Virus record (IMG/VR): IMGVR_UViG_2859805564_000008
DNA from: a virus
Taxonomy: Duplodnaviria; Heunggongvirae; Uroviricota; Caudoviricetes
DNA: 53,551 nt
Reading direction: 5' to 3' (one strand)
In this document: positions 4,171 to 45,225 of the stretch, one piece after another
Layout of the letters: each line of letters opens with the position of its first letter
Numbering within the stretch: the first letter of the stretch is position 1
The notes under the pieces: model-generated
Seen by the model: only the letters and a program-made list of their open reading frames with translations
What the model was told of the DNA's origin: nothing
The model's database searches: none
Position numbers and translations under genes: made by a program

Positions 4171-4995
4171 TCAGGCGGTGAAAGTACCAATAAAGGTTTC
4201 TACTTTGCTGTCTTTGAATTTTTCAACAAGCAGATTACGAAATTCGTTAGCCATTTCTTCCTGTACTGCTTCCAGCTGAATAATGCGCAGAACCAGTACA
4301 GGGCGATCACCAGTGATAATGCTGAGGCGTAATTTAAACGGACGTTCTTTCAGGCCTTCAAACGGAACGCATTTAAACTCAAATGCTACTGGCATAATGT
4401 CTTTAGTTTTCGCTTCGACAGACTCCATCAGAGAGCGTTTGCCGCTGAAGTCATTGTCTTCAAAATCAGCGGTCTGGTTTGCTTCAATCGTGATTTTACG
4501 GACCGCCGCAGCCGCTTTTGTTGCCTGAATGGCGTCACCATTAGCATCAAAGCCCACAAGGTAGTCGGCCCAGTCTTCAATCCATTCTGCCAGTGACTTC
4601 TGGGAGTTACGCTCGCCGTTAACAGACAACAGGGCAGAGAACGGTGCTGTCTTTTTCAGTTTGAGAGTGGCGGTGTTATCTGCGTGACCTGGTTCATCAA
4701 TAGTACCCAGGTTAAGCACACTGACGGCTCGCATATTATCAGCATCGATAAAGCAGCGGGTGCCTTCATCTGCAAGATCTTTAGAATAACGGGTAAAGTC
4801 ATCGATGCTGGCAGTGGAAAGCGCACCACGGAAACGGAAGCGATTTAAATTAAATTTTTCCAGATCATGAATGCGGAAATTCTCAGGCAATGCCACAGCA
4901 TCGGCACCAATCTTACTGATAATTTCATTAACACCCTGAGCAGAAATAAGGGCATGGATTTGATTAATTTCGGTTGCGTCTAAGTTCTGAGACAT
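4171..4995 (-). CDS. DUF2303-type prophage protein (YfdQ-like, 274 aa)
   Basis: 274-aa ORF in the position and size of KplE1 YfdQ. Confidence 0.6.
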
Positions 4996-5060
4996 AATAA
5001 GTCCTCACTATATAAAGATATTCAGTGATGAGATAAATAATCAGTTAATTAAGAACGATA

Positions 5061-5423
5061 TTAATGACCTGCTGCGCGGAGTTTTCCGTCAGGTTCACCG
5101 GCAAGAGTCAGTAATTGTCCCTGGTCTTCCTGCAGAATAGTCAGGCGACCACCGCGATTGACATACATCGGTGTTTCGGTGGTGTCTTCTTCGGAAATTT
5201 TCCCGCGGTTAGTCGGGCGAACATATGAGAGTTTGTGTTTGATTTTCACACGGTTCTCATCAAATGGTTCGATTTCCAGGTTGAGCGAGACCTTACCTTT
5301 GGTTTTCGTGTTCATCACACCGGAAGCGACTTCACTGAGAACTGCGCCGATTTTGGTTTCAAATACGCCGCCGTCCAGCTCCCCGATAAATGCCTGCACA
5401 TCAGTACTGCGTTCGCTAGCCAT
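5061..5423 (-). CDS. early-left prophage protein (YfdP-like, 120 aa)
   Basis: Track ORF 5061-5609; likely start at MASERSTDV preceded by GAGGAG; the upstream extension looks non-coding. Confidence 0.5.
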   Translation of the reverse strand: MASERSTDVQAFIGELDGGVFETKIGAVLSEVASGVMNTKTKGKVSLNLEIEPFDENRVKIKHKLSYVRPTNRGKISEEDTTETPMYVNRGGRLTILQEDQGQLLTLAGEPDGKLRAAGH

Positions 5424-6039
5424 TTTGCTGCTCCTCATCATATCGACCCTGCAAGGTCGGTTAGTTTCTCCACAAAACAGAGAAGAACACCTGCGGTGGC
5501 AGCCGCCCGGATGGATTGGGTTATGAGCCCGTCGTCCGGTGATGCTCTTCTCTGTTTTGTAAAAAGAGCGGTACCAGCCGGAAGCAAGTGTACAAACTGG
5601 TACCGCCAAAGCAGTGGCTGTTGTGGTGACCGGTGCTGATCTCCGGCTTGCGGTTATTTCAGACTCTCACGGGCGTTTAATTGCCCCGCCGAACAGCTCT
5701 TTTCCGCAATAGCTGCAATGTCTTTCGCGCATCAGTCTGCGCATTCACCACAACGCTGAGAGCACTTAGCCAGTTACGGCACCACACTTTGTCGCGGTTC
5801 CATAAATGCCCTCATCGTTGCACCCTGGTCTCTTCCCAGGCGTCAAACCGAATCGCCACGCTGGTTAGGCGTCTTATCAGCATCATCATTGACTTGCACA
5901 TTCCGGCTACCTGGTTTGTTTGCTCGAGCAAGGAGTGGATTGTCCCCTTTAACGTCACCAGACCGCTAACGACGCATGTGCCATACGCCGTGTTACAACC
6001 AAATTTTGTTTTAATCTTGCCTGTGTTATGTTTCTTTTA

Positions 6040-6072
6040 GATACATTATGTATCTCATGGGTACATTGTCAA
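6040..6072 (-). promoter_or_regulatory. candidate pL-like leftward promoter with overlapping 15-bp dyad operator
   Basis: Minus-strand TTGACA, ~17-18 bp spacer, TAATGT; dyad GATACAT-T-ATGTATC overlaps the -10 region. Confidence 0.35.
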
Positions 6073-6074
6073 GT

Positions 6075-6099
6075 ATAAAAAAACCTGCCGAAGCAGGTT
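6075..6099 (-). terminator. intrinsic terminator downstream of the repressor gene
   Basis: Hairpin AACCTGC-CGAA-GCAGGTT followed by a U7 run on the minus strand. Confidence 0.6.
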
Positions 6100-6111
6100 C
6101 ATAAATATTGA

Positions 6112-6786
6112 TTAGGCCTTTATTGTGTATCTTCTTGGTTTTCCCGAGAAAATCACTGTACCAATTATAGAGCAATTACCGTTAATCTTAATGTAAGGCT
6201 CAGGCCAGTTTGGGTTTAATGCTTTGAGATAACGCTGTGTTCCATCTTCTATCAATCGCTTGAAGGTGGTTTCGCCTGTATCGTGCATCAATGCAATAAC
6301 GTCGTCACCGTGGCAGGCAGGGACTTCGGGATCAACAAAAATCATGTCTCCAGGGCGGTACTCATCAATCATTGAATCACCAATCACCCGCAAGATATAA
6401 GTCATTTCGCCACAGGGTACAGGGCAGGGATACGTTTCTGCTGTGCTCAAATCAACCTCAGAATAGCCAACTTCTTTCCATGCTCCGGCCTGTACCCATG
6501 ATATGACAGGGACTAACGTTATTTGTTTGTTAGTGATTGAAACATCAGGTTTTTTTGTGATGTTCGTTGTCTGGTGTTCTTGATCAAGCCATCCGACAGG
6601 CAGGTCGAAACATTTTTCGATGTGCCGTGCCATGCTGTCACCGATATTTTTAGTAGCGCCATCCCCCATAAACCTGCTGGTTTGGGTTGGCTCGCGATCA
6701 ATCATGGTGGCAAAGGATGAATTTCCGCCAACACCATCTCTCAGTTTTCTGGCGTTAGACCGCCGGATGTCATGGATTGTTTTCAT
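6112..6786 (-). CDS. cI: CI-type prophage repressor (HTH plus S24 LexA-like peptidase domain)
   Basis: 224 aa; C-terminal GDSM...PGD...KR autocleavage-domain pattern; divergent from cro. Confidence 0.8.
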   Translation of the reverse strand: MKTIHDIRRSNARKLRDGVGGNSSFATMIDREPTQTSRFMGDGATKNIGDSMARHIEKCFDLPVGWLDQEHQTTNITKKPDVSITNKQITLVPVISWVQAGAWKEVGYSEVDLSTAETYPCPVPCGEMTYILRVIGDSMIDEYRPGDMIFVDPEVPACHGDDVIALMHDTGETTFKRLIEDGTQRYLKALNPNWPEPYIKINGNCSIIGTVIFSGKPRRYTIKA

Positions 6787-6803
6787 AACGAAATTAAAAC
6801 CTT

Positions 6804-6820
6804 TGTACCGATAAGGTACA
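6804..6820. promoter_or_regulatory. operator-like dyad in the cI-cro intergenic region
   Basis: TGTACC-GATAA-GGTACA inverted repeat between the divergent repressor and cro genes. Confidence 0.45.
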
Positions 6821-6876
6821 AGTATCTTGAAGGTTCATTTCAATCATGTAATATGTATACCGGAGGTACATATTGT

Positions 6877-7077
6877 ATGAAAGCGTATTGGGACTCTTTA
6901 ACCAAAGAACAGCAGGGCGAGTTGGCCGGAAAAGTTGGCTCAACACCTGGCTACTTACGGCTGGTTTTCAATGGTTATAAAAAAGCCAGTTTTGTGCTGG
7001 CTAAAAAACTTGAGCAATGCACGTCAGGTGCAATTACGAAATCTGACTTAAGACCGGATATCTATCCGAAAGATTAA
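6877..7077 (+). CDS. cro: Cro-like HTH regulator
   Basis: 66-aa ORF MKAYWDSLTKEQQGELAGKVG... with GGAGG 9 nt upstream; track ORF begins earlier at 6772. Confidence 0.7.
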   Translation: MKAYWDSLTKEQQGELAGKVGSTPGYLRLVFNGYKKASFVLAKKLEQCTSGAITKSDLRPDIYPKD

Positions 7078-7108
7078 CAGAACACCTTCAATTTTTAACC
7101 ACAGAACG

Positions 7109-7672
7109 ATGAGGCTAACCGTGGGTAAGTATCACTGGAAAGTAGAAAAACAGCCTGAGTGGTACGTGAAAGCTGTCAGAAAAACTATCGCAGCGTTGCC
7201 GGGTGGTTACGCTGAAGCAGCTGACTGGCTGGATGTAACAGAGAACGCATTATTTAACCGCCTTCGTGCCTATGGCGATCAGATTTTCCCGCTGGGATGG
7301 GCAATGGTTTTACAGCGCGCGGCTGGCACTCACTACATTGCGGATGCTGTCGCACAGTCTGCTGGTGGGGTGTTCGTATCGCTTCCTGAAATTGAGGAAG
7401 TAGAGAACGCCGATATAAACCAGCGCCTGCTGGAAGTCATTGAACAGATCGGCAGTTATTCAAAACAGATTCGTTCAGCAATTGAAGACGGTGTAGTGGA
7501 ACCGAATGAGAAGACAGCAATTAACGACGAGCTGTACCTCTCAATTTCGAAGCTGCAGGAGCATGCAGCACTGGTCTACAAAATTTTTTGCATTTCAGAA
7601 AGTAATGACGCCCGCGAGTGTGCAGCTCCGGGCGCCGTGGCGTGTCGTGACTGTGGAGAAACTAACGCATGA
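7109..7672 (+). CDS. CII/YdaT-like regulatory protein (putative)
   Basis: 187-aa ORF immediately after cro, the position of CII-type regulators. Confidence 0.4.
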
Positions 7673-40709: not shown

Positions 40710-41293
40710 TGGCATTCAGAATGAGTGAACAAGCACGGACCATAAAAATTTATAATCTGCTGGCCGGAACTAATGAATTTATTGGTGAAGGTGATGCATA
40801 TATTCCGCCTCATACAGGTCTGCCAGCAAACAGTACCGATATTGCACCACCAGATATTCCTGCTGGCTTTGTGGCTGTTTTCAACAGTGATGAGGCATCG
40901 TGGCATCTCGTTGAAGACCATCGGGGTAAAACGGTTTATGACGTAGCGTCAGGGGACGAGTTATTTATTTCTGAACTCGGTCCGTTACCGGAAAATGTTA
41001 CCTGGTTATCGCCGGAAGGGGAGTTTCAGAAGTGGAACGGCACAGCCTGGGTGAAAGATGCAGAAGCAGAAAAACTGTTCCGGATCCGGGAGGCGGAAGA
41101 AACAAAAAACAGCCTGATGCAGGTAGCCAGCGAGCATATTGCGCCGCTTCAGGATGCTGCAGATCTGGAAATTGCAACGGAGGAAGAAACCTCATTGCTG
41201 GAAGCCTGGAAAAAGTATCGGGTGTTGCTGAACCGTGTTGATACATCAACTGCACCGGATATTGAGTGGCCAGAAGAACCAGACACCGTGTAA
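40709..41293 (+). CDS. tail fiber assembly protein (Tfa-like)
   Basis: 194 aa, overlaps the stf stop; N-terminus [17 protein letters not shown] typical of Tfa chaperones. Confidence 0.8.
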
Positions 41294-44010: not shown

Positions 44011-45225
44011 CTATGATAGTTCAGCGTAAAGCTCTATCAGCTCAGTAATGAATGCTCCGAGCGTTATTAATTCTTCTCTAACTGCTTCTGGGTATTTTTT
44101 ATGTAAAGTTGATGGTACAACGAGTCTGACACCCGCATCTTTCATTTCTCGGTATTGTGCTGAAGAAACACCTTCTTGCAGTGTAAATAAATGTACCTGA
44201 TGGATTTTATCTGCTTCATTCAGTATCTGACGCCAGCGATCTTTGCAGGTGGTCTTTACTGCCAGCATACGTAAGTTTTCTACAGGAAATTCAACGTTAT
44301 GATATGCCTCTGCTGAAGGAAACAGGAAATCTGGTTTTTTATTACCTTCAGTTACTGCCTGAGTGGAGAAATGCCGTAGTCCGTGCTCGATAAAAAGCTT
44401 CTCTAGGTGAAGTTCAAGTGATTTGCCTGCCCTTGATTTACGTCGATTACTGACAGAGTTGGCTAATGCAATAAACTCATCTACAGAATCGAATCCTTTC
44501 TTAATAATATCAAGAACATGTAATTCCTCGACGAGTAGAAAAATATCATACTCGACACGCCGACGGTCAATCAGTTGCTCATCTGGATCCTTGGAGTTTT
44601 TAGCATAATGGCCAGCAGCATATTGAATAATTTCGTTTCCAGAAGGAAAACGCTTCTTCCAGTCTTCAGGAATAACATATTTATGATTTACTGGAGTTTG
44701 CTGAAGAGACAATCCGCCCAAAATTTGTCCGGCAGGGCCGGAAATTAGGGTTCCAGGTATGATTTCGCCAATAGCAGACTCGATGATATCCTCTTCATCG
44801 GGATTGACGCAGACCCATATATCTACCTCGGAACAGTCAGTGTTCTGTTCGTTTAACCTGAAAGCAAGAATTGTGAGGGCTCCTGTATTTTCAGGGTTCT
44901 GTAATGGACTTCCTCTCCCCCAGCGCGTAATTCTTTTTTCGTTTCGGGTCTTACCAAAATAACGGTTGTTGTAATAAATTGCGCGTGCTTGGGTATCAGG
45001 GCAATCATGGGATGATACATGCGCAGTAAGGAAGACTGAAGGGTTCAGTTCGCGAGTATGATTGATAGATGGAAAAAGCTTTTCAACGATATTTGAGGGG
45101 ATATAAAGTCCGACCTGATGGCCACCTGTTGCGCCTGTGTCGTTTGCAGAAAGGCGTTTGATGTAGATAAAGTAATTCCCGCTTGCGATATCAAGCAGCC
45201 AGTTATGAAAAACCGACATATACAT
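44011..45225 (-). CDS. ecoRIIR: type IIE restriction endonuclease, EcoRII type
   Basis: 404-aa ORF (MYMSVFHNWLLD...) highly similar to my recollection of R.EcoRII, convergent with the methylase gene; start may be the internal Met at 45219. Confidence 0.9.
   Translation of the reverse strand: MYMSVFHNWLLDIASGNYFIYIKRLSANDTGATGGHQVGLYIPSNIVEKLFPSINHTRELNPSVFLTAHVSSHDCPDTQARAIYYNNRYFGKTRNEKRITRWGRGSPLQNPENTGALTILAFRLNEQNTDCSEVDIWVCVNPDEEDIIESAIGEIIPGTLISGPAGQILGGLSLQQTPVNHKYVIPEDWKKRFPSGNEIIQYAAGHYAKNSKDPDEQLIDRRRVEYDIFLLVEELHVLDIIKKGFDSVDEFIALANSVSNRRKSRAGKSLELHLEKLFIEHGLRHFSTQAVTEGNKKPDFLFPSAEAYHNVEFPVENLRMLAVKTTCKDRWRQILNEADKIHQVHLFTLQEGVSSAQYREMKDAGVRLVVPSTLHKKYPEAVREELITLGAFITELIELYAELS

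Follow-up and report, generated by a model that had tools for sequence, protein, structure and literature searches.

The window considered here is a 53,551-nucleotide stretch of phage DNA (IMG/VR record IMGVR_UViG_2859805564_000008), an Escherichia coli lambdoid prophage integrated beside tRNA-Thr, and the element in question is the leader at 5424-6075 that separates yfdP from the gene of an S24 LexA-like repressor. Gene order is int, an xis-like gene, yfdT, yfdS, yfdR, yfdQ (DUF2303), yfdP (5423-5061, minus, with its start codon at 5423-5421), the non-coding leader, and then the repressor gene (6786-6112, minus), a Cro-like gene (6877-7077) and a CII-like gene (7109-7672), the identities of YfdQ and of the three regulatory genes being confirmed. 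The interval 5424-6110 (687 bp queried) is 100% identical to E. coli A0 34/86. Judged from sequence comparison, the leader is a chain of conserved, strand-specific, independently folding and helix-closed RNA modules with exchangeable cargo, read on the minus strand from 5' to 3' as domain A, module X, module Y, a hairpin (H) with the tail UCUUUUU, domain E, and a small hairpin (5459-5444) followed by the Shine-Dalgarno sequence GAGGAG (5436-5431) and the yfdP start, the last three elements spanning 5421-5459.

An earlier sequence-only reading had described this interval as non-coding, and the description holds: the minus strand of 5424-6075 contains only mechanical open reading frames of 25-49 aa, RefSeq/PGAP gives no annotation at this stretch in the E. 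coli chromosomes that carry it, and variable segments of the domain A family show no preference for multiples of 3 in their lengths among 29 diverged copies. Stop-free frames in GC-rich pieces of ~160 nt are uninformative as a coding test. The small basic open reading frame of an N analogue, which would have spoken against that reading, was looked for in the leader and was not found; as a candidate, a small N-like frame is countered both by the length test and by the wholesale exchange of the interior of Y described below.

Transcription of the leader would be driven by a pL-like sigma-70 promoter (6045-6072, minus) with a -35 TTGACA at 6072-6067, a 16-nt spacer and a -10 CATAAT at 6050-6045, so that the near-consensus leftward promoter of the sequence-only reading is borne out at 11 of 12 consensus positions, even if the promoter scan by count alone is not significant (3 sites vs 2.1 expected). 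The repressor gene's intrinsic terminator (6073-6100, minus; stem 6100-6081 plus a T-run) immediately precedes this promoter. The start point is placed near 6038, and the predicted transcript carries ~600 untranslated nt ahead of yfdP. Another promoter-like site of the same direction, TTAAGA-16-TATAAT (10 of 12 consensus positions), is found at 6164-6191 (minus), inside the 3' end of the repressor gene. The inverted repeat that had been taken as the operator, GATACATTATGTATC (GATACAT-T-ATGTATC), is indeed present at 6040-6054 and overlaps the -10, but a likelier operator is the 17-bp candidate OL TGTATCTCATGGGTACA (TGTAY-N7-RTACA) at 6049-6065, within the pL spacer, because this pattern is so rare, occurring three times in 53.5 kb vs ~0.2 expected, and is confined to the immunity region, the other two sites (6804-6820 and 6854-6870) belonging to the PR/PRM region. 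The dyad has its TGTATC half-site in common with candidate OL and may represent a second operator of different spacing. pL is probably under the control of the S24 repressor through the predicted 17-bp operator. A 15-nt inverted DNA repeat, TGTGGAGAAACTAAC, flanks the immunity region, with one copy immediately 3' of domain E (5460-5474, minus) and its partner where the cII-like gene ends (7652-7666, plus); ~0.06 such matches are expected by chance.

Folded as a whole, the minus-strand leader RNA is more stable than its shuffled versions (z = -4.8), and each domain folds alone into a structure supported by comparison with its relatives, which were collected in sequence sets for A, X, Y and E seeded with exact patterns. 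In module Y (5620-5754, minus) a conserved scaffold surrounds an 80-nt cargo (5726-5647). Its closing helix P1 is formed by GUUGUGGUGA and UCACCACAAC (5754-5745 and 5629-5620), hairpin P2 is GCGCA-GACUGA-UGCGC (5742-5727), and hairpin P4, CCGG-AGAUCAGCA-CCGG (5646-5630), is contiguous with the 3' strand of P1. Across the family the order is P1 (GUGGUG/CACCAC), an AU linker, the P2 hairpin GCGCA-GGCUGA-UGCGC, the insert and the P4 hairpin, with the loops of P2 and P4 being mutually complementary in the manner of a kissing interaction (GCUGA/UCAGC). The window copy shows this same scaffold, its first loop GACUGA allowing a 4-bp kiss (CUGA/UCAG) plus an A-C mismatch. Aligned copies have near-invariant ends and unrelated interiors: a scan of IMG/VR with the 5' core returned at least 120 loci, and among the matches listed there are 128 modules, 107 of them with a recognisable 3' half and carrying 67 different inserts of 13-163 nt (68 distinct inserts when counted over all 128 copies). 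These copies were found by fuzzy matching of the two halves, since a covariance model would over-penalise a 13-163-nt insert at the multiloop.

A second scan, anchored outside P2 and P4, recovered compensatory forms of P2 (GCGUA/UACGU, ACGUA/UACGU and GCACA/UGUGC), and the loops covary as well, GGUCGA in loop 1 being accompanied in three copies by AGUUCGACA in loop 2, which converts GCUGA/UCAGC into GUCGA/UCGAC. Over 89 distinct scaffolds, 14 pairs are changed on both sides vs 4.3 in shuffles (reached in 0 of 500), and the kissing helix is 98% paired. Every wobble variant in Y scaffolds is a G-U on the minus-strand RNA, which fixes the functional strand and argues against a palindrome acting at the DNA level. 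The proportions resemble those of a tRNA: the 7-bp core of P1 would stack on P4 (4 bp), P2 comes after the 2-nt AU linker and is like a D arm, contact between the two loops would make an elbow, and the cargo takes the place of the anticodon arm. Three further readings were discarded: a hammerhead ribozyme in Y (CUGAUG...GAAA in the window copy), as CUGAU belongs to the kissing loop that covaries and GAAA varies between copies; integron attC-like sites, as GTTGTGG/CCACAAC does not fit GTTRRRY/RYYYAAC and there is no associated integrase; and ends of IS200/IS605 type, as the two hairpin loops are mutually complementary and not alike.

The 25-nt core of Y occurs exactly in 57 GTDB species representatives, usually beside tRNA genes, its hosts including seven Janthinobacterium species, Massilia, Undibacterium, Xenophilus, Aeromonas, Marinobacterium and a Moraxellaceae genome, and it is also found in phages of Pseudomonas, Stenotrophomonas, Xanthomonas and Burkholderia. 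A few of these sequences may come from contaminating phage contigs and not from true hosts, such as the contig of a metagenome-assembled genome assigned to Geobacteraceae (L254) and that of Martelella (L253), which carry enterobacterial-type X-Y units, one with a tRNA-like sequence inside its type of Y cargo.

Module X (5755-5816, minus) is 62 nt long and immediately precedes Y. Its closing helix, GAUGAGGGCAUUU and AAGUGCUCUCAGC (strands 5816-5804 and 5767-5755, with flanking CAAC/GUUG), surrounds a 36-nt cargo, and the corresponding family helix is a 12-bp purine-rich/pyrimidine-rich one, AGGUAAGAGCAUU/AGUGCUCUUUCC, that directly abuts Y. Compensatory change affects 9 of its 12 pairs (0 of 500 shuffles), and a 6-bp extension, CACAAC/GUUGUG, covaries too, for example as CACAUC/GAUGUG or CGUAAC/GUUGCG. 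Around 110 distinct cargo types have been seen, with a median of 49 nt; 13 of the cargos, vs 0.16 in shuffles, end in a hairpin like the T arm of tRNA, and most of these hairpins are 0-4 nt away from the 3' strand. Another X cargo (L138:384-430) resembles the core of a type I hammerhead (CUGAAGAG...GAAAC) at 28.7 bits, below the Rfam gathering score of 34 (E = 0.004).

It is through X that the leader connects with an RNA already detected in vivo. The late leader of phage lambda (OR974322.1) holds a 64-nt X module at 44793-44856, immediately after tR', that is then followed by a GUUGUGCU...AGCACAAC slot (849-985 of locus L298; 44793-44930 in the record), and the reverse complement of the northern probe used for the lambda small RNA LPR2 corresponds to 44816-44850, inside this module. 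In the lambda 6S RNA region, GUUGUGG near +21 and CACAAC after the tR' U-tract act as brackets. The preprint on LPR2 (bioRxiv 10.1101/2024.10.31.621285) reports a single band of ~63 nt, bound to Hfq, present mainly in the lytic cycle and with few partners in RNA interaction by ligation and sequencing (RIL-seq); in the part consulted it describes no scaffold family with exchangeable cargo. Since the LPR2 probe maps inside the 64-nt module and LPR2 itself measures ~63 nt, lambda X is excised as a discrete stable RNA in vivo, the agreement in size supporting processing at the base of the closing helix. The X of the window shows the scaffold of LPR2, with the 12-bp closing helix (9/12 and 10/12 identities with lambda X on its strands), the CACAAC/GUUGUG-type extension and the same junction to an abutting next module with a GUUGUG-type helix, but its cargo is unrelated to that of lambda, and it lies in a pL leader whereas lambda X is downstream of tR'. 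Accumulation as a discrete, Hfq-associated RNA of ~63 nt is known for the lambda module only; window X, at 62 nt, may behave alike.

Domain A (5817-5991, minus) is a conserved structured RNA of ~175 nt. It contains hairpin H1 (5991-5969), a variable hairpin enclosed by a long-range helix, the invariant core CCAGGUAGCCGGAAUGUGCAAG (5914-5893), where GCAC and GUGC may form a pseudoknot, and hairpin H6 (5840-5824), and its 3' end reads GUGCAAC. Members of its family are ~155-205 nt long and come first in arrays whenever present. Common to the 29 diverged copies are a hairpin with a GGCAC loop, the long-range helix that encloses the variable hairpin, a 3' hairpin, and the segment CCGGAAUGUGCAAG, which is invariant and might base-pair with the GGCAC loop; 98% of the cells of the alignment are paired, and 8 pairs are changed on both sides vs 3.3 in shuffles (0 of 500). 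In phage P1 (L013 4001-4185) the domain sits between trnI and ban, directly after tRNA-Ile2, in the C1-controlled ban operon, for which the annotation of P1 itself gives a dicF-like region upstream.

Hairpin H with its UCUUUUU tail (5561-5607, minus) has a 13-bp stem of -21 kcal/mol (z = -4.0) and resembles an intrinsic terminator, a role it may play; the scan for consensus terminators did not report it because its apical loop of ~11-13 nt (19 nt outside a perfect 10-bp stem) is above the limit of the scan. A hairpin with U5 is conserved ahead of E-type modules at other loci. Domain E itself (5472-5560, minus) is a three-way junction within a closing helix of 15-21 bp (ACAAAACAGAGAAGA/UCUUCUCUGUUUUGU), with -47.5 kcal/mol and z = -7.2, and it bears the arms GGG-CUCAUAA-CCC (5530-5518) and GCGG-CUGCCA-CCGC (5506-5493). 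Its 14-mer CGGGCUCAUAACCC (5531-5518) matches E. coli K-12 metZ without a difference over positions 29-42 (0 of 2000 shuffles), which in this initiator tRNA comprise the anticodon loop with its three G-C pairs; the motif is found again in other scaffolds, and the outer stem of this arm covaries.

No counterpart of these elements was found among catalogued RNAs. Against Rfam 15 (including ROOL, GOLLD, c4, isrK, STnc100 and DicF), the best matches in 5440-6010 stay below 17 bits, and no match overlapped the A, X, Y or E scaffolds in the window and 59 related loci, either at gathering thresholds or at permissive E-values, matches there being limited to tRNAs, c4, isrK, isrJ, int-alpA, IS009, an IS1222 frameshift element and a sub-threshold hammerhead. 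The strong IS009 RNA match of the window (224.7 bits) lies elsewhere in the prophage, at 41052-41250 (plus). A literature search with exact scaffold strings returned nothing relevant, and the Pas small RNAs, which occupy the same late prophage region, were discarded as relatives: their supplement contains none of the motifs and they have their own terminators. On these grounds A, Y and E would constitute at least three RNA families not in Rfam, the known relative being lambda LPR2, for X only.

The leader is matched in 3006 of 5426 complete E. coli genomes and also in lambdoid phages of differing immunity regions (mEp460, cdtI, Ayreon, Stx2c phages and SfV). Its pieces recur separately in P1, P7, D6, P1-like IncY plasmids, phiV10-like phages and the late leader of HK620, as well as in T1-like, N4-like and Ackermannviridae phages. 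Leaders of Ayreon, the Stx2c phages and PhiR40_1, listed at ~90% identity, are in fact ~99% identical to the window except in the interior of Y, where unrelated sequence fills the whole space between the P1 arms. Architectures are combinatorial (for instance X-Y, A-X-Y or A-Y-E). At about 49 loci the modules closely follow a cI-like repressor gene of the same strand, as they do in the window, and ~50-60 loci have Q or RusA on one side and the holin, endolysin and Rz genes on the other; other contexts are the vicinity of terminase or portal genes, tRNA islands, the trnI-A-ban arrangement of P1 and the lambda late leader. Nearby tRNA genes are co-oriented with the minus-strand modules by 41 to 1 among the matches listed for 120 IMG/VR loci. 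These comparisons indicate that A, X, Y and E belong to families spread and recombined among many phages, X and Y being scaffolds with a slot for hypervariable cargo.

Individual loci add further detail. In the P1-like plasmids (L003 and L004) X-Y units come directly after tRNA-Thr. The Hfq-binding small RNA isrJ (RF01393) is found at L175:142-220 and L219:975-1053, heading in the former an array that continues with two tRNA genes, an E-type module and X-Y. The c4 antisense RNA and isrK, of an immI-type region, stand 1-2.5 kb from arrays at L016:2538-2726 and L021:2965-3153.

Strongly transcribed untranslated leaders of phages are known sites of accumulation for accessory cargo such as tRNAs, stx and small RNAs. 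The array of the window is best explained as an accessory, moron-like non-coding RNA locus of this kind, part of a strongly transcribed leader whose RNA is processed into stable small species, and not as an N/nut or put device, an explanation to which a probability of roughly 0.6 is given. Upon induction or infection, host RNases would cut the pL transcript at the bases of the closing helices and so set free stable small RNAs, as the analogy with lambda LPR2, built on the same X scaffold, suggests, while Y might be a punctuation mark read by enzymes of tRNA maturation (RNase P, RNase E or RNase Z). Scaffolds would provide folding insulation, processing and stability, and cargo would provide specificity through effects in trans on targets of the host or of rival phages, perhaps in the manner of decoys or sponges; in the window phage this cargo would include the mimic of the initiator-tRNA anticodon arm in E. 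In broad kind, the array would belong with phage-encoded, processed non-coding RNAs, and what sets it apart is the combination of (i) ultra-conserved scaffolds, (ii) a covarying kissing-loop clamp, (iii) hypervariable cargo, (iv) a tRNA-mimic element, and (v) a distribution reaching lambda and P1.

Several observations weigh against this explanation. Near-invariance of the scaffolds may partly reflect recent horizontal spread together with sampling by exact patterns. LPR2 is the sole experimental anchor for module processing, and its cargo differs. A search of the window for antisense targets gave a single 15-mer that is not RNA-complementary, and thus no target. Hairpin H with its U5 lies ahead of E and yfdP, and reading through it calls for an explanation when no N analogue is present. 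Finally, neither ARAGORN nor the Rfam tRNA model (RF00005) finds a tRNA in 4900-7200 or recognises any module, so the tRNA likeness of Y is one of topology and dimensions only, and a canonical tRNA gene lies within 1.5 kb of only 19 of 125 Y modules among the matches listed.

A more specific version of the same idea regards the array as a programmable locus or RNA-based counter-defence, where X and Y, as universal and ultra-conserved scaffolds, the latter a tRNA-shaped clamp with a kissing elbow, would present rapidly exchanged cargo hairpins as decoys or sponges for tRNA-directed enzymes (anticodon nucleases of VapC, PrrC or PARIS type) or for host or phage RNAs, the mimic in E being one such decoy and the tRNA-maturation machinery punctuating the array. 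This version is tentative and rather doubtful.

GOLLD, ROOL and the T4 species 1 and 2 RNAs are phage non-coding RNAs of unknown function found with tRNA genes, and the modules of the window are like them in being phage-borne, multi-domain, pseudoknotted, situated beside or enclosing tRNA genes and partly variable. They differ from these RNAs in their lack of any Rfam match, in their proteobacterial hosts, and in forming a chain of separable cassettes of ~60-175 nt and not one large RNA. With tRNA-like punctuation, as in the P1 c4 and P4 CI RNAs processed by RNase P or in mascRNA-type elements, they share the acceptor-like helix of Y stacked on a T-like hairpin, its 2-nt linker, D-like hairpin and loop-loop elbow, the position of modules in tRNA arrays at tRNA-like spacing, and the copy of the initiator anticodon arm in E; on the other hand, the tRNA-finding programs pass over them, the elbow of Y is a Watson-Crick kissing helix, and there is no CCA end.

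Among the alternatives to a locus of processed non-coding RNAs, one holds that the structures act in cis on their own mRNA, stabilising or processing the early-left message or controlling translation of yfdP, for example with E as an operator that mimics the initiator anticodon arm beside the ribosome-binding site. E indeed ends 36 nt upstream of the yfdP Shine-Dalgarno sequence and carries the CGGGCUCAUAACCC motif, and RNase III sites are common in phage leaders, as established for T7 and lambda. Nonetheless, E-type modules elsewhere stand ahead of other genes, such as rdgC in a Klebsiella plasmid, or come after tRNA genes in late leaders, and E is therefore not a yfdP-specific operator; A, X and Y likewise occur with unrelated downstream genes, and turnover of cargo is unexpected for an operator dedicated to one gene. 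A role of this type is unlikely.

Improbable as well is a cis-acting leader for processive antitermination or against Rho, in which one domain, most plausibly A, or a boxA-like element would modify the polymerase so that it passes H and the terminators beyond, a substitute for N/nut like put in HK022. The situation invites the comparison with HK022 put and lambda nut: an untranslated stretch stands directly downstream of a repressor-controlled early promoter in a phage with no recognisable N gene and no N-like frame, a terminator-like hairpin with U5 separates the array from yfdP, and the two commonest contexts are leaders of operons controlled by antitermination, pL and pR'. Two boxA-like sequences are also present, CGCUCUUUUUACAA at 5570-5557, overlapping the 3' arm and U-tract of H, and UGCUCUUU in the 3' strand of family X, which is like the start of the rrn boxA and is degenerate in the window copy (UGCUCUCA). 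However, boxA-like octamers ([CT]GCTCTT[TA]) occur at chance frequency, with 6 in the window vs ~6.5 expected, and UGCUCUUU is not a sequence-specific boxA because it is one strand of the X closing helix with its compensatory pairs. A lambda-type boxA (CGCUCUUA/UGCUCUUUAACAA) that is both single-stranded and conserved in sequence was not found in the window, and neither boxA-like site is followed by a boxB hairpin with a GNRA-like pentaloop or accompanied by a conserved small basic N-like frame. As for put, the leader gave only chance matches of 9-10 nt in a blastn-short comparison with the nun-cI interval of HK022, including pL-putL, and motifs of A, X and Y are absent from HK022. Modules situated kilobases from promoters in P1 and in T1-like, N4-like and Ackermannviridae phages, beside tRNA genes and in the tRNA islands of virulent phages, are a misfit for a promoter-proximal antiterminator acting in cis; the X of lambda is downstream of tR', where the polymerase is already modified by Q; and hypervariable cargo is not expected in an RNA that binds polymerase. 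Hence, from what the sequence-only reading had suggested for this leader, the untranslated structured RNA and its leftward transcription from a repressor-controlled promoter stand, and its alternative of a small RNA comes close, whereas the nut-type and put-type elements find no backing, a put-like effect in cis of domain A on read-through of H with its U5 keeping a small probability.

Still less probable is that the modules are what is left of phage tRNA gene clusters, spacers included, as these decay, and that they persist only since their structure avoids Rho or nucleases, with no specific function. Their association with tRNA genes and the T-arm-like and anticodon-arm-like fragments in their cargo would fit such an origin, but the scaffolds hardly vary in sequence from one bacterial class to another, compensatory changes keep the helices intact, and one scaffold surrounds >60 unrelated cargos, which is the opposite of random decay. 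Weakest of all, palindromic recombination linkers or repeats like miniature inverted-repeat transposable elements, marking mosaic boundaries with no RNA function, would account for the sharp cassette replacement exactly within the P1 arms, for the GTTGTG...CACAAC inverted repeats that bracket modules and for the mosaic distribution across unrelated phages, but they are very unlikely in view of wobbles that the opposite strand or a DNA cruciform would have to accommodate as A-C mismatches, a loop-loop helix that covaries, modules strictly co-oriented with tRNA genes, and a lambda X that is a detected RNA species.

With the leader regarded as a locus of processed non-coding RNAs, a stretch that is unannotated in more than half of the complete E. 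coli genomes is reassigned to a structured-RNA family, and lambda LPR2 becomes tied to a much larger cassette system with exchangeable cargo. The core of the covarying kissing-loop scaffold of Y is conserved from Enterobacterales to Burkholderiales, and a concrete reason is offered for phage leaders and tRNA islands being hot spots of non-coding cargo. If it is true that the cargo acts as decoys for tRNA-targeting immunity, or that tRNA-like punctuation releases the small RNAs, this would be a new principle of phage RNA biology.

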